Positions 4,580 to 62,934 of a stretch of DNA of 64,000 nucleotides are shown piece by piece (position 1 is the first letter of the stretch; each line of letters begins with the position of its first letter). Origin of the DNA: an uncultured archaeon (GTDB taxonomy: Archaea; Asgardarchaeota; Thorarchaeia; Thorarchaeales; Thorarchaeaceae); assembly GCA_964610875.1 (NCBI GenBank), contig CAZSWP010000012.1:23056-87055 (forward strand), given 5' to 3'. The translations under genes and the position numbers were made by a program. The notes below the pieces were generated by a model. It was not told the origin of the DNA, ran no database searches, and worked only from the letters and a program-made list of their open reading frames with translations.

Positions 4580-5569
4580 TTATGGAGTGCCTCTCGGAAT
4601 TAAAACAGGTCCTTTTGAATAATCGAACATTATATCCTCATTATCACCCTGTCGCAAGCGGAGTGTTTTTTGGGAATCAACATATCCAATTTTTAACATT
4701 TTCATTCCATGAGATATTGCAATTTCCTCAACCGTAGATAAACTATTTTCAGGTACTGACAGTAAGAAACCAAGAGAAATGAACATTCTTAGCCAGTCAT
4801 CCATCTCAATCTCTTCAGGTCTTGACCTTTCAATCCAATCAAGAACTAATACTCCACCAGTTCCTGAGTATTCCAACATCATTCCAGCTGTACCGACGAT
4901 GCCTGAAACAGATACATCCTTTGATGCAGAAACTAGTTTTCTCTCAGCTAATTCATTCATTACAGATAGTCTTGTCGTGACAGTATCCGAGTCCCGTCCA
5001 GTGACAGAGTCCCAACCAAGTCGATAGCTAGATCCACGTCGGCCGGTGCTATCAAAAAGTAGTACAAGACTCTCTCCTGCTTTTGCACCACCCGAGGTAA
5101 GCATTACCTGTTTCTTCACTGTACCAGTAGCAGAACCAACCACGTAAGTTGATTCAGATGCCGGATTTGTATGACCTCGAACAATTGGTACTTCAAAAGT
5201 ATTTGAACCCTCAATGACGCCCTCTAATAGCTTTTCTCCTACCGTTTCATCAGAATATGATAGTGCTATTGCAAATGAGGTTGGCACACCACCTGCTGCA
5301 TAAATGTCCATTATGTTTGCAAGTACTGCATTAAATCCAGCTGCGTGAGGGTGATGCAAGCATAATTCTTCAACGATTGCATCTGTGGTCAATAAGACAA
5401 CATAATCTGTGTCAGTAAGAATTGCTGCAGAGTCCTCTCCAAGCGAATGAGGACTATTTCCATTATATGATGTCGCCCGTAATTTAGAAAGAATATTGGG
5501 AATCACAAACTTTCTTGAGATACCATCAAAACTTCGAAGCATCTCTATAGTCTTTTGTAAATCCCTCAA
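4580..5569 (-). CDS. AIR synthase-related (PurM/SelD/ThiL fold) protein
   Basis: GEDSAAI, ANIMDIYAAGGVP, GHTN and SKDVSxxG motifs. Confidence 0.8.
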   Translation of the reverse strand: MRDLQKTIEMLRSFDGISRKFVIPNILSKLRATSYNGNSPHSLGEDSAAILTDTDYVVLLTTDAIVEELCLHHPHAAGFNAVLANIMDIYAAGGVPTSFAIALSYSDETVGEKLLEGVIEGSNTFEVPIVRGHTNPASESTYVVGSATGTVKKQVMLTSGGAKAGESLVLLFDSTGRRGSSYRLGWDSVTGRDSDTVTTRLSVMNELAERKLVSASKDVSVSGIVGTAGMMLEYSGTGGVLVLDWIERSRPEEIEMDDWLRMFISLGFLLSVPENSLSTVEEIAISHGMKMLKIGYVDSQKTLRLRQGDNEDIMFDYSKGPVLIPRGTP

Positions 5570-5598
5570 CGACTATCACTCGATGAACTAGTGAAGAC

Positions 5599-5724
5599 TT
5601 ACGGTCCTCCCATAAATCCTATTGCGAACGCAATCTGACCGAGAATGTATCCAATTGCGAGAAGTGACATACCTACCATGAAATAAATCAACGCACGCAT
5701 TTCATGTCTAATTTCTTCGAACAT
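5599..5724 (-). CDS. Small (41 aa) single-TM membrane protein, not in ORF track
   Basis: GGTGA RBS then ATG: MFEEIRHEMRALIYFMVGMSLLAIGYILGQIAFAIGFMGGP*; fills a gap in a minus-strand gene run. Confidence 0.65.
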   Translation of the reverse strand: MFEEIRHEMRALIYFMVGMSLLAIGYILGQIAFAIGFMGGP

Positions 5725-5796
5725 CTATGTTCACCTTCGGGTGCTCCGAAAATTCATTGTGATGCTTATAGACGTTGTGGGATGTCAGTTAAACAT

Positions 5797-6105
5797 CTAC
5801 AGATTGCCTTTACTACGGATTTTCTTTTCGTATTTTTTGGGTATGTGTTGTGGGTCTACAAAATCATCTCGTTCATCGACCTCACCTTTCTTCGTTGCTA
5901 GTCGTCCTCTGCACTTCCCAGCATCCCCCATGCGTCGTATTCTGCACTTAGCGTATTGACACCATCCGCCATCACATGTATCCTCAAAAGTAGCACACCA
6001 TGCCACTTTTTTTCCCTTTTCTTTGCGAAACAGTAGCACGCCCTTCCCCTGATCACAGACAAATTCTGGACAGAAGGGAGTGCAATCTGATTGACCTTTC
6101 TGCAT
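5797..6105 (-). CDS. Cys-rich hypothetical protein
   Basis: Eight Cys in 102 aa; GGAG RBS; co-oriented with neighbours. Confidence 0.65.
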   Translation of the reverse strand: MQKGQSDCTPFCPEFVCDQGKGVLLFRKEKGKKVAWCATFEDTCDGGWCQYAKCRIRRMGDAGKCRGRLATKKGEVDERDDFVDPQHIPKKYEKKIRSKGNL

Positions 6106-6136
6106 GAGATCAACTCCTGACCGTAACCATTCGGGT

Positions 6137-6997
6137 TTACTTCTTACTTGCTAATGTTATCATCTCATCCAACATCTTATGGCCACCAAGAATGACATTC
6201 TCAAATCTATCAATCAATGATTTTTTGGAATCATAATTGGCAGTAGAGATATCTCCAATCTTTAGTTTAGCTTCTAGACGACTTCGTTCTTTTCGAAGAT
6301 TCTTGAGCTTTTCATTCATTGATTTCAACCAAGTCTTGGACACCTTTATTGCTGTCTTAAGACCACGCCGTAAATCTCTGATTTTGATAAGAATCCTAGT
6401 CTTCTCCTCTTCAAAGACTTCAGGGTCAAGTTTTTTCTCAATCCCTTCCAGTTTCGAGAGTTTTGATTCATGTTCCTCAAGTTCGTCGAATATTCGTTTG
6501 ATTGGCAATATGCCTTTGACTTTTCTCAGGTCTTGTCTTCTATTCTTAGTCTGCATGAGTCTCTCCTTGAGGTTCTCTGCACGTTCAGTTAGAAGTTCTT
6601 TATCTGCATGTTTCAAGTCTAAAGCATGGCGTGTAGCACGAATCTGTTCAATCAGGCTGTCCAATTCTTTGTCTAAGACATCTAATTCCGACTTAGAGAA
6701 CAAACGGGCCATATCTCGTGGATCCATTCCATCAATATGAAATCCAAAATCAGGAAGATGCTCTTCCACATCCACTAGGACTTCTGATGTGGTATCTTCT
6801 GATATAAGCTTAGTTTCTACTATGTCTTGTGAAGAATCTGAGTCTTCTTGCCCTTCCTCCTTTTCAGGATGAAGAAGTTCTCCGCAGTACTTACAGTACT
6901 TACCATCAGACACTTCAAGACCACAATTCGGACATACAATGAGGTCCTCAGCCATCAACAGCCCTCGATATAGATTATTGAATCTTGATGGACACAC
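6137..6997 (-). CDS. Double zinc-ribbon plus long coiled-coil protein (C-terminus CdvA-coil-like)
   Basis: CPNCG...CKYCG, acidic linker, heptad coils, LEAKLKIGDISTANY motif. Confidence 0.65.
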   Translation of the reverse strand: MCPSRFNNLYRGLLMAEDLIVCPNCGLEVSDGKYCKYCGELLHPEKEEGQEDSDSSQDIVETKLISEDTTSEVLVDVEEHLPDFGFHIDGMDPRDMARLFSKSELDVLDKELDSLIEQIRATRHALDLKHADKELLTERAENLKERLMQTKNRRQDLRKVKGILPIKRIFDELEEHESKLSKLEGIEKKLDPEVFEEEKTRILIKIRDLRRGLKTAIKVSKTWLKSMNEKLKNLRKERSRLEAKLKIGDISTANYDSKKSLIDRFENVILGGHKMLDEMITLASKK

Positions 6998-7022
6998 CCA
7001 TCAAACCGTCATGATACTTAAG

Positions 7023-7340
7023 TTAAATCAAAGTTCCAAGTTTTGCTGCCGCTTGATCAAGCTTTCCTTTTGAATTCACAATTGTATCTGTTCCGTATGA
7101 AGGTAGGACCTTCAATTCCTCCACAAGGAGAGCTATTGCTGTCTTGGGGTCAATTTCTTTCTGATCCAATGAACCGTCTGGAAAAGTAATTGATGCTTCA
7201 ATCCACTTCTCCTTTGTTTCATCAGCAGGAAAGATACAATAGATATAGTCATCATTGCTGCAGATGAAAGAAGGTGTATTCTCCCATGCTTGAGCCAGTA
7301 CCGCTCCAAAGTTCTTTGCATTCTCTGCTTTGTCTGCCAT
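7023..7340 (-). CDS. Hypothetical protein
   Basis: 105-aa ORF with GGTGA RBS. Confidence 0.7.
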   Translation of the reverse strand: MADKAENAKNFGAVLAQAWENTPSFICSNDDYIYCIFPADETKEKWIEASITFPDGSLDQKEIDPKTAIALLVEELKVLPSYGTDTIVNSKGKLDQAAAKLGTLI

Positions 7341-16579: not shown

Positions 16580-17353
16580 TTAGACTCTTTTTGCTCCAGC
16601 GGCCTTCAAAGCCCTAATAATCTTCTTGAGCCCATCTCCCATGTCATCCTCAACATGATCTTCAAGATATGTGCCCTGAACAATGATTGAAGCTCCTGAC
16701 TTTACACCACGAACAACATCGTCTGCTGTATTGAAACCGCCGCCGGTAATCACGGGTATGTCAATGTAGGTTGAAACCGTAGAAATCATCTCGCTAGGCA
16801 CACCACCTCCATCAGCTCCACTTCCTGCCTCAAGATAGACCAGTTTGAAACCAAGGAGTTCTGCTGCCATTGCATACATGAGAGGAATCTTTGGCTTGTC
16901 TCGTGGGAACACTTTTGCATCACCCACCCATGCCGCGGTCTTTCCAGGAGCGACCATCAGGTAGGCCATTGGTATCGTTTCGATCTCGGCCATTTTCACA
17001 CCTGCTGATGCAAGTGCCTGTGCTCCAATGATCCAATATGGATTAGTGGAATTCAGAAGACTCATGAAAAACATTGCATCTGCGTACTTGGAAACACCCG
17101 ATATATTGCCTGGGAATAGAATGGTTGGAATTTCAACAGCGTCAGTGATTGCCTTTACTGCCTCATCAATGACACCAAAGATTGTACTACCACCTATCAT
17201 TACTGCATCAGTGCCAGATTTTTCGGCAATCTGTGCAATATTGACGACACGGTCAATTGTCATCTTTAGTGGGTCGGGGTCAAGTAAGGAAAAATGACAA
17301 GCGCCATCTGTGGCAATCTTTTCTTCTATGTACTTCCACACTTTTCCGGGCAT
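16580..17353 (-). CDS. Geranylgeranylglyceryl phosphate synthase (group II)
   Basis: LLDPD, MIGGS, LFPG, SLLNS.NPYWIIGAQ, YLEAGSGA. Confidence 0.92.
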   Translation of the reverse strand: MPGKVWKYIEEKIATDGACHFSLLDPDPLKMTIDRVVNIAQIAEKSGTDAVMIGGSTIFGVIDEAVKAITDAVEIPTILFPGNISGVSKYADAMFFMSLLNSTNPYWIIGAQALASAGVKMAEIETIPMAYLMVAPGKTAAWVGDAKVFPRDKPKIPLMYAMAAELLGFKLVYLEAGSGADGGGVPSEMISTVSTYIDIPVITGGGFNTADDVVRGVKSGASIIVQGTYLEDHVEDDMGDGLKKIIRALKAAGAKRV

Positions 17354-17426
17354 CTAACAGCCTCCAAATGGTGTGCATCGACCGATTGACCTGCTTTTTA
17401 CGCTTGTGGTATATAACGGAAAGGTA

Positions 17427-18068
17427 TCACTCACTTGGTTTCCCAGTTCGTGGAAACGGAAGGATTCTGCCAGTATGCTCCATATATTCTGCGTACTCTT
17501 CTCCAAACACTTGTAGTAGGTATTTTTCTTCATAGAGTATCACGTTATAGTAACCCGGAATACCAATCAACAGTATCAGTGAAACTACGGAAGGCACTAA
17601 GAATACAATTCCCAGGAAACAGAGAATATACGACGTATATGAGGGATGTCTCACTTGGGAATAGGGACCACGTGTGATAAGGACATGTTGATTACTCATG
17701 GCCCATGACGAAGCCATGTCATGACGTACGTATCTCGACCAACCATGAATAACAATACCAATGGTAAGGAGTATTAACCCAATAAACCATAGTGCAAATG
17801 GTGCATCGTAGAGGGGTATCATTAGCATAACTAAAAATTCTCCAGTATTACTGACCCAAGCTATTGGAAACAACAGTGCCAGACAAAAAGATAGGAGTGT
17901 TGCTATCGTTACAGCTGCCATAGTACCATTGGGCACACTGGTTGCGGGTTCTGAAAACACTGTACTATTTTCTCGGTGTATTTTTGCCAGGTCAAGTTTT
18001 AGATGAAGTAACACATCCACTGTTGCAAAAATTCCTATGACAGGTCCTACCAAGAAGAAATCAAGCAT
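17427..18068 (-). CDS. Isoprenylcysteine carboxyl methyltransferase (ICMT/PEMT) family membrane protein
   Basis: LITRGPYSQVRHPSY and EEKYL..FGEEYAEY..TGR..P motifs. Confidence 0.85.
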   Translation of the reverse strand: MLDFFLVGPVIGIFATVDVLLHLKLDLAKIHRENSTVFSEPATSVPNGTMAAVTIATLLSFCLALLFPIAWVSNTGEFLVMLMIPLYDAPFALWFIGLILLTIGIVIHGWSRYVRHDMASSWAMSNQHVLITRGPYSQVRHPSYTSYILCFLGIVFLVPSVVSLILLIGIPGYYNVILYEEKYLLQVFGEEYAEYMEHTGRILPFPRTGKPSE

Positions 18069-55036: not shown

Positions 55037-56431
55037 ATGAAACCTAATTCAATACTGATTGAGAATGGCTATATCCTGACACTGAATCCAAAGAGGGAGA
55101 TCATTAAGAATGGCTCTGTCCTGATTAAGGATGGTATCATCACGCAAATCGGCAAGACATCTGATATCAAAGCAAGAGATGCTGCAATCACCATTAATGC
55201 AAAGGGTAATGTCGTCATGCCGGGTCTTGTTGACACTCACGTGCATCTTGCTCAGGCACTCATTCGTGGGTGTGCTGATGATGTATCTCTTGTGGATTGG
55301 TTGAAAAACTATGTGTGGGTTCTTCAGGGAAATTACACAGCTGATGATGGTCGGTTATCTGCAGAACTCTGCATGGCTGAAATGATCCGCACCGGCACAA
55401 CTTCCTTCATAGAATGCATGATTCACACAAGGTATGGATTTAATGGAATTGCTGAAGCAGTAGAAAAAGCAGGAATGAGGGCTGCTCTATCAAAGATAAT
55501 AATGGACTCTACTGGATATGCTGACAACCCTGATATCATGTATCCTGGGATGGTGGAGGATGCTGAAGCCAGTCTCAAAGAGACCGGTGCCATGATGAAG
55601 AAGTGGCACCTACAGGACGAGGGGAGAATACAGGTCTGGTATGGGATACGGTCACTTGGAGCGGTCACTGATGATTTATTTAGAGAGGTTGTTCAACTTG
55701 CACGAGAGAAGCAGACTCATATGACCATGCATCTCGGTGAGGTTGAGGATGATGTCCGCTATGTGAAGGAGAAGGGATATGATACACTTACTGCGTTCGC
55801 AAAAGACATGGGGCTTCTCGGTCCCGACATGGTCTTTGCACATGGTATTCATTTTGAAGACCAAGAGATTGATGTCCTCGCTGCCACGCAGAGCAATATT
55901 TCACACTGTCCCTCAAGTAACACAAAGCTAGCATCCGGGTTTGCTAAAGTCCCATTGATGTTGGAGAAGGGTGTTCCTGTATCTTTGGGCTGTGATGGCG
56001 GTCCAAGCAATAATACGTATGACCTGATGAGAGAGATGCGCCTTGCCGCCTTAGTCCATAAGGCTGTTGTGAGAAATCCACTTATTGTACCTGCAGAGAA
56101 AGCCATAGAAATGGCTACTATCAATGGAGCAAAAGCTATGGGTCTTAAAGAACAAATAGGCTCTCTTGAGAAAGGCAAGCTAGGTGATGTGATTATTGTG
56201 GATATGGATCAGACCGGTCTAGTACCTGTAACAAATCCAGTTTCAAATCTTGTATATGCAGGGAATGGACTATATGTTGACACAGTCATTGTAAATGGCA
56301 GGTTGTTGATGCATGAGAAAAAACTTCTAACATTGGATGAGGCTCGAATTAAAAAAGCAGCAAATGAGCGAATCTGGGATTTGCTGGAGCGCTCAGAAAT
56401 TGATATTGAACCAAAATGGCCTTTGAAGTGA
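55037..56431 (+). CDS. Amidohydrolase (MTA/SAH deaminase, AtzA/TrzA or guanine deaminase family)
   Basis: PGLVDTHVH, HLGE, AHG, HCP.SN.KL, LGCDG, GSLE.GK..D. Confidence 0.88.
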   Translation: MKPNSILIENGYILTLNPKREIIKNGSVLIKDGIITQIGKTSDIKARDAAITINAKGNVVMPGLVDTHVHLAQALIRGCADDVSLVDWLKNYVWVLQGNYTADDGRLSAELCMAEMIRTGTTSFIECMIHTRYGFNGIAEAVEKAGMRAALSKIIMDSTGYADNPDIMYPGMVEDAEASLKETGAMMKKWHLQDEGRIQVWYGIRSLGAVTDDLFREVVQLAREKQTHMTMHLGEVEDDVRYVKEKGYDTLTAFAKDMGLLGPDMVFAHGIHFEDQEIDVLAATQSNISHCPSSNTKLASGFAKVPLMLEKGVPVSLGCDGGPSNNTYDLMREMRLAALVHKAVVRNPLIVPAEKAIEMATINGAKAMGLKEQIGSLEKGKLGDVIIVDMDQTGLVPVTNPVSNLVYAGNGLYVDTVIVNGRLLMHEKKLLTLDEARIKKAANERIWDLLERSEIDIEPKWPLK

Positions 56432-56434
56432 GCT

Positions 56435-58072
56435 CTATAGATCATCTATTTCTTCATTCACTGAAGCAAACCAGGTTCGTATTGCCTCTTCTGGACATCC
56501 CCAGCACTGATCTTCTACACTCCAGAGCTGAAAATTGAATTTTTGTCCATAAACAATCGGTGTGCCAAGTAAGCCTCCTATTATCCCATGGCCAAGAGAT
56601 CTAACAGCTTTGGTAAACCCATATGCGCCTCCTTTTGGAAGATTTGCTCGTATCTGAGTTGGACCTTCCTTGGAAAAGATTACCCGGGAATGTGGAAGAC
56701 GTTGGACCCATGCTGCAAGACTCCTACCTTTCATTGTATCATCGGTCTGTATAAGCACCGACTCGTTAAGTCCAATATATCTTAACTCCCAGAATATTGC
56801 AATAAGTCCTCTTCTCCTCAGTTTTTGTAATTTTTCAATTACTTTGTTTTGTCCTATACCTAGATGTTTCCGAATTTCTCTAACTGTTGTTATCCTGCTT
56901 CGAACCATGGATATGATTTCAATATCGTGCGAGTCCAACTCAATTTCTATTGGCTGAATAGGTTTCATTTTCAAAGGTATCACATCTGCTAATTCCTCGT
57001 TATGGATCCGCACAAGCTCGAGTTCAAGAATATTCCAAGGAATTTCCCATTTTCCTATATCTGTTGAATAGAAGTCAAACGAACGAATATTTCCTGCAGA
57101 TTCAGTTTCTAGATTGTGAACCTCTACTCCTATTTTCTTCAGTGTACGATAGAACTCCTCGATGGCTTTGTTATTCATCTTGTTCTCAGGAACCGCAAGA
57201 AGCACGAAAAGGTCCCAATCCTCAGTTAAGACTGGTGTTGTAGAGTAAACAAATGGAGATTGTGTGAGTAATGAATTGAGATTTAGATTACTATTGTCCG
57301 CTTTCAAAAGCACATTCCGGATGCCAATACCGATTTTTGAATATGGTACATGATCATATCTGATGAATACCAGATGGTCCATCAACGCTGAAAGCCTCTT
57401 TGACACCCATTGCGGGGTCATACCTATCTTACTAGCCAATTCAGTCACAGTTATGTCCGGTTGCTCATAGACCTCATCTACCATAGCGATCTCTGTCTGG
57501 GAGAATCTTCTTGAGAAAAGACGTTGTCGACGAACATAATACTCTCCATAGTCATGATCATCTAACCTGACGCTCCGTTTTGCCATTGAAAGCAGTTCCC
57601 TCAGGATTGTCTTTACGCCACTATCTTCTGTAACGAAGTAGAGGTTCTTGTAGGAGAGTGCTGGGTAGATTGCAATATTCTTACCAAATTCAACTCGATG
57701 TTCGAGGTTATTCCATCTCTCAAACCACTTCGACCGCTCAGATTGGTTCAGGTAATGAAAGGAGAGACCTAGTGACAGGTGCTTGTGTGCCTTTGGACTG
57801 AGTCCTCTTCTTGCAAGTGCTGAATATATGCAGGTGGATATGGTGGCACCCTTCTTGTACGCATCTGAGTCTGAACAGGAAACATCAAGATGCAACATAT
57901 TCTGCTTCAGTTGTCCGCCAACTACTCGATGCCGCTTCGGAATTTTGGAATACACTATATCATCAATTTTGATTTCATGAATGAGTCCGACTGATTGGTC
58001 TAGATCCTCTAGCACATTCTTCCAAATGTGTCTAAGTTCTGTGACTTCTGAACTGCTTATTTGATTGGGCAC
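56435..58072 (-). CDS. Large tandem winged-helix / Lrp-AsnC-like protein
   Basis: Two HTH segments (TVTELASKIGMTPQWVSKRL; TVREIRKHLGIGQNKV), each followed by a RAM-like region; FDFY....W linker; extra N-terminal domain. Confidence 0.65.
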   Translation of the reverse strand: MPNQISSSEVTELRHIWKNVLEDLDQSVGLIHEIKIDDIVYSKIPKRHRVVGGQLKQNMLHLDVSCSDSDAYKKGATISTCIYSALARRGLSPKAHKHLSLGLSFHYLNQSERSKWFERWNNLEHRVEFGKNIAIYPALSYKNLYFVTEDSGVKTILRELLSMAKRSVRLDDHDYGEYYVRRQRLFSRRFSQTEIAMVDEVYEQPDITVTELASKIGMTPQWVSKRLSALMDHLVFIRYDHVPYSKIGIGIRNVLLKADNSNLNLNSLLTQSPFVYSTTPVLTEDWDLFVLLAVPENKMNNKAIEEFYRTLKKIGVEVHNLETESAGNIRSFDFYSTDIGKWEIPWNILELELVRIHNEELADVIPLKMKPIQPIEIELDSHDIEIISMVRSRITTVREIRKHLGIGQNKVIEKLQKLRRRGLIAIFWELRYIGLNESVLIQTDDTMKGRSLAAWVQRLPHSRVIFSKEGPTQIRANLPKGGAYGFTKAVRSLGHGIIGGLLGTPIVYGQKFNFQLWSVEDQCWGCPEEAIRTWFASVNEEIDDL

Positions 58073-58229
58073 TCGACTTGCACCAATTACTGAACTGCAT
58101 AGTCCTAGAAAACTCTTGAGTCTGGCACTATGAGAAAGGTGAGGGTCCCCCCCTTTTCTACCATTTACAAATTCGTAACCTCGTTACAAATCTACAATCC
58201 CACGATACAATGCATCCCTAATGCAAAGA

Positions 58230-58283
58230 TTAGCAGTAAATGCCAGAAATAAAGAGGAGATCCTCAATCGTGGGATTCCTCAT
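58230..58283 (-). CDS. 17-aa peptide MRNPTIEDLLFISGIYC, not in ORF track
   Basis: GAGGGG RBS 4 nt before ATG; TATA-like TAATATATA at 58338-58330; TAA stop. Confidence 0.5.
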   Translation of the reverse strand: MRNPTIEDLLFISGIYC

Positions 58284-58329
58284 GCATCCCCTCAAACGCA
58301 TGAAGTTAATTCATGTTATGCATTCAGGG

Positions 58330-58338
58330 TATATATTA
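58330..58338 (-). promoter_or_regulatory. Putative TATA box for the peptide transcript
   Basis: TAATATATA on the minus strand about 47 nt upstream of the peptide ATG. Confidence 0.4.
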
Positions 58339-58473
58339 TGCAGGGTGATTCTAGAATGAGTCTAGACGCCGTTTCCTTCCCATATATGAGGGGCACTCTC
58401 CACGGTGTCTTCTAGCTACAGGAAATCTCGTATCAAGATTAAACTGGAATGCTCTCTGTAGGCAAATTCGTTA

Positions 58474-59691
58474 CTATGCAATTATCGCCTCGCGTTCGAA
58501 GAGTTTTGCTCCAATTATCAGAAACACTAGTGTGAATCCTAGAAGGTACAGAATGTTCCCCAATAGCCCGAAGAATGTTGCAGTTCCTGCAAGTATTGCG
58601 TTCAGTATTATCACTGCATGACTGAATGGGATTGCCAGAACAAAGAGTCCGAAGATCCCTCCATATTGAAGAATACTACCTGTGAAACCAAGAATGCCTA
58701 TGACGAAGGTTGGGACCAGCATTATGAGATTGTTTACGGACTCTGCAGTTGCTTGGTCTTTTGCTAGACAGGATATCACCACACCAATCCCGATTGCACA
58801 GAGTAGGATCAGAAATTGACTGAAGAAGATTGCTGGTAGAGTTTCCACGCGGACCGTATACAAATTGATGAAGTAATTGGCTGCAACCTCTGGGAATGGT
58901 GCAACTCTAACAATTATTGACCAGTTGTAGACTAGGATTCCTACAATCGTGAACACCGAGTAGATCATTGTGAGAAGTAATCCTGCTACCAACTTAGATC
59001 CCAGAATCTTCACTCTACTCATTGGTACTACAAGAAGTGCTTCCAGCGTGTGCTGTTCTCTCTCTCCTGCGAATGACTTACTGACATAGGGTGCCGGAGC
59101 CAGGACTGAGGTTAGCATCACGAGAAAGATTGCCAACTGATGACCATAACTTGCTTCTGGTGAGATTGTGTGCCAATTCACCTGTAAATCTCTGACTACA
59201 ATTATCTCATTGATAGTTTGCTTTGAGAAAAAGTCAATGCGTTGGGCTGCGGCAGTTGCCCTGAAGTTTCCTGTGTTAACCCAAATTGTCAATGTACTTT
59301 TGTTCGAGTTCTCAAGTTCCTGCGTGAAATTCTCAGGTATATATACCCACACTGACACCGTTTTGTTATCCACAAGACTCTGACCAAACTCCCGGGTCAC
59401 ATTGACTAACGGATCGATGAGTAACAGATCTGTGTTTGCTTCAATTGCATTGTACAGGGTCTCACCCCAAATGCCATTGTCTTCATTTGTAATATAGACC
59501 ATTTCTGGTTCTTCTGTTGTTTGAGCTACAATAAATGAGAGGAATGCCCCTTGAAACAACCAGGCGAACAAGGGACTGATCATGAAACCGAGAAGTAACC
59601 ATCTTGACCTGAGGACTGATTTGATCTCTTTTCGTAGCATCCAGACCATCTTTCTATCAACATATGGTAGTCTCATCTCATCACTCTCCAT
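58474..59691 (-). CDS. ABC-2 type exporter permease
   Basis: KEIKS..R, GEREQHTLEALL..P, GSKL, PFSHA; 6 TM helices plus an extracellular loop. Confidence 0.9.
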   Translation of the reverse strand: MESDEMRLPYVDRKMVWMLRKEIKSVLRSRWLLLGFMISPLFAWLFQGAFLSFIVAQTTEEPEMVYITNEDNGIWGETLYNAIEANTDLLLIDPLVNVTREFGQSLVDNKTVSVWVYIPENFTQELENSNKSTLTIWVNTGNFRATAAAQRIDFFSKQTINEIIVVRDLQVNWHTISPEASYGHQLAIFLVMLTSVLAPAPYVSKSFAGEREQHTLEALLVVPMSRVKILGSKLVAGLLLTMIYSVFTIVGILVYNWSIIVRVAPFPEVAANYFINLYTVRVETLPAIFFSQFLILLCAIGIGVVISCLAKDQATAESVNNLIMLVPTFVIGILGFTGSILQYGGIFGLFVLAIPFSHAVIILNAILAGTATFFGLLGNILYLLGFTLVFLIIGAKLFEREAIIA

Positions 59692-60448
59692 AAACTCCCT
59701 CGCCGGTGATCAGTCCGGTGAACACTTCCTCAAGATTAGCGGCCATGTACTTCTCTTCAAGCTCGGATGGTTTTCCAATGGCAATCAGCTCGCCCTCATT
59801 CAGAATGCCTACTCTATCACAGAGTTCAGAGACCTCGTTTAAGTCGTGAGTTGTGAGTATGATTGTACGATTCTCTTCCTGACTGAGCTTCTTCAGTACA
59901 TTCCGGACGACGCGCGCACCAATCGTGTCTACGCCCGTTGTAGGTTCATCCATGAAGACAATCTCAGGTTCGATGATGAGTGCCCTTGCAACCAGAACCT
60001 TTCGTTTCATCCCACCACTGAAGCTCTTGACTTGGTAGTCTTCTTTCTCCTTCAGACCGACGGTCTCCAATAAGTGATCTGCTCGTTTGTTCAGCTCCCT
60101 CTCAGGGATGCCGTACAATCCACCGTAATAGACAAGATTCTCCCGTGCCGTCAGACGTTCATAGATGCCTGCCTCTTGTGGGAGGAGAGCCACACGTTCT
60201 CTGATATAGTCTATGTCCTGTTCAACATCCTTTCCCAGAACGTACGCTTTGCCACTCGTTGGAGTCAAGAGACCTACGAGGACACGAATCAGAGTGGTCT
60301 TACCTGCTCCGTTTGGCCCTAAGAGACCAAACACTTCTCCTCTCTTTATCTCTAGATTGACTTCATCGAGAGCGATAACCTCTCGTTTCTTGCCTTTCTC
60401 AAAGATCTTTGTCAATCCCTCTGTTCTAATGACTCTGTCCAACTCCAT
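59681..60448 (-). CDS. ABC exporter ATP-binding subunit
   Basis: GPNGAGKTT, FSGGMKRK, DEPTTG, TTH. Confidence 0.93.
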   Translation of the reverse strand: MELDRVIRTEGLTKIFEKGKKREVIALDEVNLEIKRGEVFGLLGPNGAGKTTLIRVLVGLLTPTSGKAYVLGKDVEQDIDYIRERVALLPQEAGIYERLTARENLVYYGGLYGIPERELNKRADHLLETVGLKEKEDYQVKSFSGGMKRKVLVARALIIEPEIVFMDEPTTGVDTIGARVVRNVLKKLSQEENRTIILTTHDLNEVSELCDRVGILNEGELIAIGKPSELEEKYMAANLEEVFTGLITGEGVYGE

Positions 60449-60472: not shown

Positions 60473-61240
60473 TCATTGTACGTGTTTGACCTCTGGAAAT
60501 GGTGGTTCTCCTTTTAACATCTCAAGAAATTCGTGAGCTCTAGCAATCCCAGCGTCTTCACCTTGGATGAAGAATGTGACTGAGCCTTCTGCTCCATTGA
60601 TGCCACCTGCCGCAATTGGGATTGTGAGCACACCGAAGAGTGCCTGAAGAGCATCTATCTCTGTGAATGGAATACCCTCAGGAATTGCGATTGCACCCAC
60701 TGGCCAACCGATTGTATAGTCCCACTCGTCCTTCCCAAACTGGCCTACAAAATCATCATAGGAAACAGGAATGAACTTCTCAAATCCTCCTGGCATCACA
60801 ATCGTCACATTCTTAGCGGCAGCGGCACCAATGAATGAACCCACAGTTCCACCAGTTTCGCTAGCAAGCAGGACTATCGGTGTCCAATCCCTATCAAATG
60901 CATTGACACTCTTGATTATGACATCCTTGGGGCCGAGCTCTGAGAGGACATCTATCACTTTCTTCTCATCCAGATATTCTCCTCGATGAAATATGGCATC
61001 ATGAGCACGATGTTCTTTCTGAGTGATTGTCATTCCCTCAGGCTTCGTCAGCCCTGCGATATGCTTTGTCTTATCGTAACTACCCAGTATCTCTTCAACA
61101 AGGTAACTGGAGGTTGTGCCAAGCGTGACGCAGAGATATCCTTCTTGTAGTGCAGTAGTGACCTCTTCTGTAGCGAGTAGGCCTTTTGCAATCAGTCTCT
61201 TACTTTCAGACACTGTGAGGGTGACAAGTAGCTTCTTCAT
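60473..61240 (-). CDS. Conserved-looking hypothetical protein
   Basis: 255-aa ORF with TLTVSESKRLIAK, GTT, GGTVG and GGINGAEGS motifs. Confidence 0.7.
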   Translation of the reverse strand: MKKLLVTLTVSESKRLIAKGLLATEEVTTALQEGYLCVTLGTTSSYLVEEILGSYDKTKHIAGLTKPEGMTITQKEHRAHDAIFHRGEYLDEKKVIDVLSELGPKDVIIKSVNAFDRDWTPIVLLASETGGTVGSFIGAAAAKNVTIVMPGGFEKFIPVSYDDFVGQFGKDEWDYTIGWPVGAIAIPEGIPFTEIDALQALFGVLTIPIAAGGINGAEGSVTFFIQGEDAGIARAHEFLEMLKGEPPFPEVKHVQ

Positions 61241-61449: not shown

Positions 61450-62934
61450 ATGCCTGACGTCTTCTGCTCTGTGAAGGTACCCATTGCATATGCTCAGCTG
61501 AGCGGGTACGAGAAACAGCGGCTGCGACAGATGTTAGGTAGGGACAGTCGCTGCATCAAGGACTTCCTTGGTGTCATCGAGGAACATGAGAAAGAGCTGC
61601 TTACAGGCAAGAACAATGACAGGGTCGAAAAGGGCCAGTTGGCGAAGCTCACCATGACCGCTATCAAAGGCGTGCCTGTACGTAAGCAACGCCTCTCAGT
61701 CCCTCATGACATGAAGGCGAGATACAGGCGTTCCTCGGTGCATGAGATATACGAGTGCATGGATACGGCCATTGCCATGTACGAGGCATATCTGAAGCTC
61801 AGGAAGAAGCTCGGTGCATCGCGTCCCTGTGCTGTGAACAAAAGTAGATGCGTACCACGGAACGCATACACTCGGTGCTTCGAGCTTATTGAATCTGAAT
61901 CCAGTAGATGGACCCTTGACCTGCGAGACTCCTTGGACTCGTCACCACAGGGTAGGTTCAGGCATGACAGACTGAAGATTCCTCTGAAAGTCTCAGACTA
62001 CCATCGAGAGAGGTTACAACAGGGTGAAGTGAAATCGTTAAAGATATTCACTGATTCATCTGGAAAGTGGTGGGTGTCATTCTCTGTGAAAGTTGACATA
62101 CCAACACCTGAAGAGGAAGGAAAGCCTGTTTCTGTGCTCGGCATCGACCTTGGTATCAAGAAGGCTGCTGTAACCACTTTGGTGACACCTGAGAAGGTCA
62201 GAGGGACGAGGTACTTCATACAGGAAAGCAAGGCTCTGCTCATCGAGAAGTACGACAGGCGAGTGGCTGAGCTCCAACGGGAGCTTGCTACTCGAAGGAA
62301 CAATGGTCTTCCGTACGATAGTGTCGCAAAGGAACTGAGACGAATCCGTCACAAGCGGTTGGATATCGCGAAGAATTATGATAGTGTGTTGATAACACAT
62401 CTCCTTGACTATATCGAAGAGCTCTCAAAGGACTATACGCTGTACGTGTCCATTGGGAAATTGAAAGGTATCCGAAAGCTGGCTCGTAAGGGCAACTACC
62501 GCGGAAGAAGGTTCAGAGGTATGCTACATTCGTGGGCATTTCACAGAATCACTGAGACCCTGAGATTCAAGCTGGAACTCCTCGGTTGGCCTACGAAAGG
62601 AAAGAGCTCATGGTTCAGAGTGGTGTCAGAACATGGGACATCAAGCAAATGCTGGAAGTGTGGGAGGAAAGGTATTCGACCATATCAGAACTACTTCGTG
62701 TGCCATACCTGTGGACACAGGACCAACGCTGACAGGAACGGAGCTATCAATATAGCTGCGAAAACAATCACGCTCACTCCATTACTTCATGAAGTGAGAG
62801 GACTAGGCAATTGGGCCAGCTCGGTGGAGCGCGGTCTGCGGCTGAAGACCCGAGGGACTTCTTTAGAAGAGGTCTCGGAGGAGGTCCTGACCCTCTACAA
62901 TAGAGAATCATCAGTCTCGGAGGGAGCGCGGTGA
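61450..62934 (+). CDS. tnpB: RNA-guided endonuclease TnpB (IS200/IS605/IS607 family) with rearranged RuvC-II; no transposase nearby
   Basis: GIDLG (RuvC-I), SIGKL, VSEHGTSSKCWKC...CHTC zinc ribbon, NADRNGAINI (RuvC-III). Confidence 0.9.
   Translation: MPDVFCSVKVPIAYAQLSGYEKQRLRQMLGRDSRCIKDFLGVIEEHEKELLTGKNNDRVEKGQLAKLTMTAIKGVPVRKQRLSVPHDMKARYRRSSVHEIYECMDTAIAMYEAYLKLRKKLGASRPCAVNKSRCVPRNAYTRCFELIESESSRWTLDLRDSLDSSPQGRFRHDRLKIPLKVSDYHRERLQQGEVKSLKIFTDSSGKWWVSFSVKVDIPTPEEEGKPVSVLGIDLGIKKAAVTTLVTPEKVRGTRYFIQESKALLIEKYDRRVAELQRELATRRNNGLPYDSVAKELRRIRHKRLDIAKNYDSVLITHLLDYIEELSKDYTLYVSIGKLKGIRKLARKGNYRGRRFRGMLHSWAFHRITETLRFKLELLGWPTKGKSSWFRVVSEHGTSSKCWKCGRKGIRPYQNYFVCHTCGHRTNADRNGAINIAAKTITLTPLLHEVRGLGNWASSVERGLRLKTRGTSLEEVSEEVLTLYNRESSVSEGAR

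Follow-up and report, generated by a model that had tools for sequence, protein, structure and literature searches.

A candidate attenuator-like leader RNA upstream of a 545-aa regulator-like gene in a Thorarchaeaceae archaeon

Transcription attenuators and riboswitch-type leaders that act through an intrinsic terminator are bacterial systems, a hairpin is generally not required for archaeal termination, and known examples of cis-acting RNA switches in archaea are few. The locus studied here lies in a 64,000-nucleotide (nt) stretch of contig CAZSWP010000012.1 of an uncultured Thorarchaeaceae archaeon (this whole stretch is called the window, and positions are counted from its first letter), and comprises the 401-nt gap between the stop of an ABC-2 permease gene and the GTG start (58072) of a gene for a 545-aa regulator-like protein, termed F0. 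From sequence comparison we hold with moderate confidence that this gene would be an orphaned member of a cassette, placed under an attenuator-like leader RNA made up of a promoter and a structured leader at about 58310-58125. Attenuators share with it the promoter, the folded 5′ leader, a hairpin and pyrimidine tract 5′ of the gene, and a predicted alternative fold, whereas the archaeal TATA promoter, the lack of an Rfam family, the free sequence and length of the body and an open reading frame (ORF) without a run of regulatory codons set it apart from the bacterial cases. Our literature searches returned no description of the leader or of the cassette, which is weak evidence given their limited coverage, and no cis-acting RNA switch turned up in them for Asgard archaea. 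What is new is the link between two kinds of loci of the regulator family (peptide-type, with a divergent Pro/Trp micro-gene, and leader-type, without it), the common leader ends and the zincin-like N-domain of the protein.

Conserved ends and folded body of the leader

The leader-type loci keep a non-coding order of TATA box, TGAGGG, folded body of variable length, G-rich GGGGACC hairpin, pyrimidine tract and regulator gene, and the TATA box, the TGAGGG and the G-rich 3′ hairpin persist at loci whose regulators share 27-38% identity with that of the window. Of the 16 leader-type loci, 10 contain an exact GGGGACC, as does 1 of the 41 peptide-type loci (expected 0.005 per 350 nt), although 3 of these 16 leader-type loci had been chosen by eye for the motif. 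The tree joins the 545-aa protein of the window with three loci from a second genus as its sister group (support 97/95), and these loci retain the TATA box, the GAGGG at equal distance and the G-rich 3′ element. The leader of that sister genus is 82-86% identical between its loci, where the four-fold sites of the permease reach 38-49% and the stretch ahead of the TATA box 65-70%; the variable pairs in it mainly swap to or from G-U on the leader strand. In a third genus the leader is short (about 45 nt) and contains no ORF, and at four further loci it takes a 330-nt form in which a frameshift crosses the reading frames. The bodies of these three forms (short, window/sister-type and long) are not alignable. 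Promoter-like and terminator-like ends are conserved, the body is folded, and the ORF in it is not conserved.

The folding of the body was compared with shuffled sequences and with other gaps of this genome. The segment 58310-58125 folds with a z-score of -4.45, none of 200 shuffles being equally stable, and does better than 65 of 70 gaps of the same size (the other 5 fold equally well). For the long form, z-scores of -3.5 to -5.4 were obtained in four sequences, with seven double-sided pair changes, a number reached by 0 of 500 shuffles; at the position equivalent to the G-rich hairpin these loci have a perfect hairpin followed by T6-7. If these elements function as they appear, transcription would start about 25 nt past the TATA box and would mostly end at the G-rich hairpin and pyrimidine tract, the regulator being reached on read-through only, so that the leader would act like an attenuator keeping an orphaned regulator low. 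This putative dependence on read-through is suggested because no separate TATA box is visible on reading the sequence from the G-rich hairpin to the GTG of the regulator gene, which itself has a well-spaced Shine-Dalgarno motif. The likeliest trigger would be a DNA- or RNA-binding protein, for example the regulator itself. Whether hairpin-based attenuation works in Asgard archaea could be tested directly on such a class of leaders, in which the ends are fixed and the folded body can be exchanged.

Besides the selection of three loci by eye, the following points weigh against this reading. The leader body of the window has 50-53% identity to that of the sister genus, where shuffles give 48%; it is unalignable, and therefore the homology between the two lies in the two ends only. 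As many as 96% of the predicted pairs hold in the sister genus, yet this is not above shuffles with three sequences, and the covariation test of the long form comprises just four related sequences. The G-rich hairpin of the window is weaker than that of the long form and lacks a clean U6 run. Also the TATATAC is nearly palindromic, and its direction is weakly supported by genome statistics. In a distinctly improbable alternative, the gap would be the decaying relic of a lost CRISPR-Cas island in which promoter and terminator persist and the body is functionless. It would agree with the truncated or split state of the other regulator copies of this genome (on contigs C3 and C77, the one on C3 being shortened by a stop), with the resemblance of the short leaders to deletions between G-rich repeats, and with a repeat-like relic at the same junction in genome G034; but the sister-genus leader is far more conserved than neutral sites, the regulator of the window is full length and folds well, and the leader body folds strongly.

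Several candidate interpretations of these elements were dropped. The family-wide pattern GGTAG..GGGGGACC gave no more total matches than the control, the six permease-linked ones being the meaningful ones, and GGGGGACC was rejected as a terminator of general use in the genome, its occurrences lying mostly within genes. A reading of the G-rich motif as Gly-Pro-Pro codons left over from a micro-gene that decayed on the opposite strand failed, the ORFs being inconsistent and the starts lost in two of the three sister loci. A mini-ORF within the long-form RNA is not kept in locus L095, and at its stop position stands TGA or CGA. Likeness to RNase P, SRP, TPP or cobalamin elements was dismissed because their motifs are absent, and Rfam covariance models run on the gap and four related loci gave chance matches only. 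One metagenome pattern scan gave 52 matches, none of them relevant. It may be noted that at permease-linked loci the distance from the permease to the TATA box is nearly constant (138-147 nt), and that several of them share an AGTGCC-like word some 60 nt ahead of the TATA box (58390-58400 in the window).

Table 1. Features of the locus, with positions in the window.
Feature	Position	Strand	Basis or remark
TATA box, common to all leader-type loci	58329..58337	-	Anchored alignment of 13 loci
5′ hairpin H1, with GAGG in loop and ATG in stem; includes conserved TGAGGG (58294-58289)	58278..58305	-	Predicted fold
17-codon micro-ORF, ATG start; lineage-specific	58230..58283	-	Sequence read, cross-locus comparison, codon score
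11-bp stem (58277-58267 paired to 58206-58196) that closes a junction of three hairpins; spans most of the micro-ORF	58196..58277	-	Inverted repeat I2, predicted fold
Hairpin H3 of the leader	58169..58193	-	Predicted fold
G-rich hairpin with GGGGACC (within 58152-58144), then pyrimidine tract; terminator-like	58133..58159	-	Predicted fold, pairing probability 0.81
GGTG, Shine-Dalgarno-type motif 8 nt 5′ of the F0 GTG start	58081..58084	-	Sequence; genome spacing peak 7-8 nt
F0, 545 aa: zincin-like N-domain (about aa 1-185), then two winged helix-turn-helix and Lrp/AsnC-type units	56435..58072	-	Pfam HTH, model, fold searches
Amidohydrolase, deaminase-type	55037..56431	+	Converges directly on the permease in most relatives
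ABC-2 permease	58474..59691	-	Family-wide neighbour marking an integration site, outside the module
ABC ATPase, same exporter operon	59681..60448	-	Preceded by a 255-aa gene

The 17-codon reading frame and the RNA alternatives

The preliminary description had presented the 17-codon ORF as a micro-gene with its own TATA box and GAGGGG ribosome-binding site. Both sequence elements are there (the GAGGGG at 58293-58288, 5′ of the ORF), but codon use, spacing and non-conservation speak against the status of a gene. The ORF is missing at all 10 other loci with the same promoter and leader layout, the sister clade included, and the TATA box and GAGGG are kept at these 10 loci; therefore these are not the peptide's own signals. 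At the orthologous loci both stops and frameshifts are tolerated, which is the conservation outcome that the preliminary description had named as speaking against its proposal. The ORF found at the corresponding position in the sister genus is unrelated, has 19, 19 and 29 codons with a switch between TGA and CGA (stop and Arg), and differs within each pair of loci by 2 synonymous and 5-7 non-synonymous codons, where the permease of the same genus shows 116-151 synonymous vs 13-18 non-synonymous.

Within the genome, the GAGG-to-ATG spacing of 6 nt is just off the peak of 7-10 nt (18 genes at 6 vs 112 at 7), and the ATG sits inside a predicted 12-bp hairpin. The codon-usage score of -0.08, as low as which is seen in just 2% of real 18-codon stretches, falls at the 31st percentile among chance intergenic ORFs, so the codon use is non-coding-like. 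On a given strand, 54 of 246 gaps of 300-500 nt have an ATG ORF of 10-40 codons with a Shine-Dalgarno-like 4-mer, and 3-6 of the 246 have a TATA box in addition, a combination that is uncommon because the promoter is real. No second copy of the peptide was found by tblastn across the genome, BLASTN of the gap against its own genome and 60 relatives gave a sole match inside a coding gene, and three DNA contig sets from one study (possibly the source sample itself) held no variants. The ORF is probably incidental, at most a sequence-independent upstream ORF (uORF), and probably not a real signalling peptide gene; a 17-aa product, if made, would be a by-product. The preliminary description had also offered, as an alternative, a leader peptide controlling the helix-turn-helix gene. 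A leader does stand 5′ of that gene, and the evidence favours RNA structure in place of a peptide.

A translated uORF of irrelevant sequence, where a ribosome at the start would open H1 and the 11-bp stem and flip the leader from the terminator fold, is quite unlikely in our estimate. On masking 26 nt over the ORF start the predicted terminator pairing fell from 0.81 to 0.01 and an alternative 14-nt helix, I1, was favoured (0.86), masks deeper within the ORF left the terminator intact, and in all three sister-genus sequences an ATG lies near the 5′ side of the main stem. But masks 3′ of the ORF stop cause the same loss of the terminator, which is therefore a general effect of one stem breaking; also the Shine-Dalgarno spacing is off-peak in the window, the GAGG-to-ATG distance is 16 nt in the sister genus (where the H1 loop position is possible too, with a different stem), and the short-form leaders have no ORF. 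The alternation between terminator and helix I1 is a prediction for the window sequence only.

CreT small RNA toxins of CreTA modules (PMC8501985), and a proline-codon toxin (bioRxiv 10.64898/2026.06.02.729485), are defined by a pair of adjacent rare or Pro codons immediately following an efficient start. The window resembles them in having a mini-ORF followed by a stable stem-loop and in the CRISPR-Cas context of the regulator family. In a further alternative, which we consider unlikely, the unit would be a small RNA gene standing by itself and encoding, for example, a trans-acting RNA or an RNA toxin like CreT; it would have replaced the Pro/Trp micro-gene as cassette effector, the regulator being expressed through leakage or from its own weak promoter. 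The micro-gene is indeed missing from leader-type loci, and in loci L095 and L108 the long form, a closed 330-nt fold ending in its perfect hairpin and T run, lies just behind CRISPR arrays. Also the segment 58262-58286, which overlaps the ORF start, matches, in 22 of 26 columns, the CRISPR repeat that stands beside the regulator family in G006, G031 and L095; the alignment score of 32 was equalled by 0 of 150 shuffles and by 14 of 8877 genome windows. Against these points, the likeness was noticed after the fact and none of the ten other leaders tested shows it, this type of repeat was not found in the genome, and the longest match of 23 array spacers to the gap is 9 nt; the likeness is possibly a repeat relic and possibly chance. 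Unlike CreT, moreover, the window ORF shows no two consecutive rare or Pro codons after its start in the codon list and usage, and no CreA mini-array or cas gene was seen nearby, the search leaving aside degenerate mini-arrays. The leader bodies measure anywhere between about 45 and 330 nt and are unrelated in sequence, which again speaks against a stand-alone small RNA.

The regulator family and its Pro/Trp micro-gene

The AF2 model of F0 has a pLDDT of 91.5. For its C-terminal part the fold matches are to NirDL, with its tandem-Lrp fold, and to Lrp/AsnC proteins (Foldseek E of 5e-7 for NirDL), so that F0 shares with NirDL/AhbAB two Lrp-like units, at a sequence identity of 13% to NirDL. The N-terminal 185 residues resemble M1 aminopeptidase and thermolysin folds (VIA Z 8-9.7, root-mean-square deviation 4-5); Foldseek on this domain returned nothing at E <= 0.001, and PprI at only E 0.3, and our confidence in its zincin-like identity is moderate. 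An N-terminal zincin-like fold is common also to the IrrE/PprI-type zincin-HTH regulators, but in F0 the HExxH motif is missing (alignment A3): the family consensus at that helix is ARE, and F0 lacks even the Glu. Peptidase activity is thus not expected, and from the model the domain would be inactive and possibly peptide-binding.

The ancestral partner of the regulator family, which is present in 54 of 86 genomes (no relatives were found in viral contigs), is a divergent micro-gene. This gene, Pro- and acidic-rich, of 12-19 codons and ending in PW or PF, is found at 41 of the 71 family loci with enough upstream DNA (one locus is counted twice, and about 7 more micro-genes were recognized by eye), and starts 82-218 nt upstream of the regulator on the opposite strand. 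All four Pro codons are used at its conserved positions and the Trp is kept in 36 of 39 cases, which suggests selection on the micro-peptide; the 17-mer of the window lacks this codon signature. The same features separate it from CreT, for although it has consecutive prolines, it draws on all four Pro codons and keeps the Trp. Many of these loci carry a CARF-HTH gene of the HFX_2341/Csa3-like type, and many end type I-D operons (Csa1, Cas6, Cas3, Csc1, Csc2 and Cas10d-like genes). The genome studied has one such micro-gene of 17 codons on contig C77 (L119:5420-5473). A CARF-HTH gene and a split tandem-Lrp paralogue are divergent from it, and downstream of it lie a TM1812/DxTHG CRISPR-associated gene and an array of 11 repeats. 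At the window locus, as at the other leader-type loci, the micro-gene is not present, and in a midpoint-rooted tree the peptide-bearing loci take the deeper branches with the leader-type loci nested in at most three groups, some forks being open. The copy of the window sits at a junction between permease and amidohydrolase where such cassettes recur. The pairing of regulator and micro-peptide anticipated in the preliminary description therefore holds for a different, Pro/Trp peptide at other loci and fails for the 17-mer, and it is the micro-gene with the zincin-like N-domain at loci like that on C77 that makes a testable pair.

Peptide-regulator pairs are known from the RRNPP and Rgg/SHP systems, the RRNPP-type regulators having TPR repeats. 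The likeness to them lies in the conserved micro-peptide gene divergent from the regulator gene in the relatives, not at the window locus; unlike RRNPP, the regulator has Lrp and zincin-like folds and no TPR domain (none was found in F0 by model and fold searches), and the peptide is acidic, Pro-rich and without an export signal. It was proposed that exporter, 17-aa peptide and regulator form a pheromone module, the peptide being secreted or lipid-modified, exported by the ABC-2 system and sensed by the 545-aa protein. The ATPase, the permease, the ORF and the 545-aa gene all lie on the minus strand, as had been stated, and the peptidase-like fold of the N-domain could bind a peptide. Even so this proposal is highly improbable: the peptide is missing at all orthologous loci and in the rest of the genome, and the exporter is a neighbour that usually has no adjacent regulator. 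Orthologues of the permease occur in 68 of the 86 genomes of the family; of 30 permease loci inspected, 16 adjoin the convergent amidohydrolase directly, and a regulator stands behind in 7 (directly in 6, and behind a CARF-HTH gene in 1), other genes being found in the remaining 7. Several genomes hold CRISPR arrays and cas operons at the junction of permease and amidohydrolase, which therefore behaves like an integration site.

Nor did the suggested lipid modification of the terminal Cys by an ICMT-family enzyme encoded at 17427 find support. The peptide ends in Ile-Tyr-Cys-stop, which is neither a CaaX nor a CC/CXC end, and the gene (17427-18068, minus strand) scores higher as PEMT than as ICMT and runs in the same direction as the PcrB/GGGP-synthase gene beside it (window 16580-18068), which suggests a role in lipid metabolism. 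No PF01239 match above cut-off, as for a protein prenyltransferase alpha subunit, was found in the genome (95% complete), which has five PF00432 repeat proteins.

Taken further than our preferred attenuator-like leader, and tentatively, since it strikes us as doubtful, the family may form a CRISPR-linked cassette of Thorarchaeota in which a pseudo-peptidase/tandem-Lrp protein would sense or control a cytoplasmic Pro/Trp micro-peptide, while derived copies would have swapped the peptide gene for a structured RNA switch gating read-through, with the 17-codon uORF as ribosome sensor. If true, the RNA-switch cassette would be a new class of archaeal attenuator.

Neighbouring genes and further observations

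Ahead of the ABC ATPase lies the 255-aa gene (60473-61240), 57-70% identical across the family and without a Pfam or NCBIfam match. Just upstream of the exporter operon is a TnpB/Cas12f-like gene (61450-62934), for which no similarity to the gap was found. In the sister genus (L094:1073-3278, L096 and L097) a 283-aa gene and a B12-binding radical SAM gene stand between the ABC ATPase and the permease. Other regulator paralogues adjoin ABC-2 exporter genes, at L120:5293-9930 (contig C3 of this genome, G000) and at L102:6474-10480. In locus L035 (G034), about 210-230 nt past the permease stop, the first 10 nt of the CRISPR repeat described above are closely followed by a repeat-like 3′ end, and this segment, likely a repeat relic, adjoins a GGGGGGACC hairpin. 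Among peptide-type loci, a TAGTTCA-like motif is seen between hairpins, 40-70 nt past the micro-gene stop (L042, L043, L047-L050, L054, L055, L068 and others), followed by a G/C hairpin and a T run, forming a conserved putative RNA tail of the micro-gene transcript. Two further micro-ORFs were noticed: in yet another genus (L033:291-338, G015) a Pro-rich one ending in PPW stands together with a two-repeat unit behind the permease, and in another family (L122 near 5151-7238, G041) one of 26 codons, rich in Pro and Trp, is divergent from a distant member of the regulator family and close to cas6 and an array.

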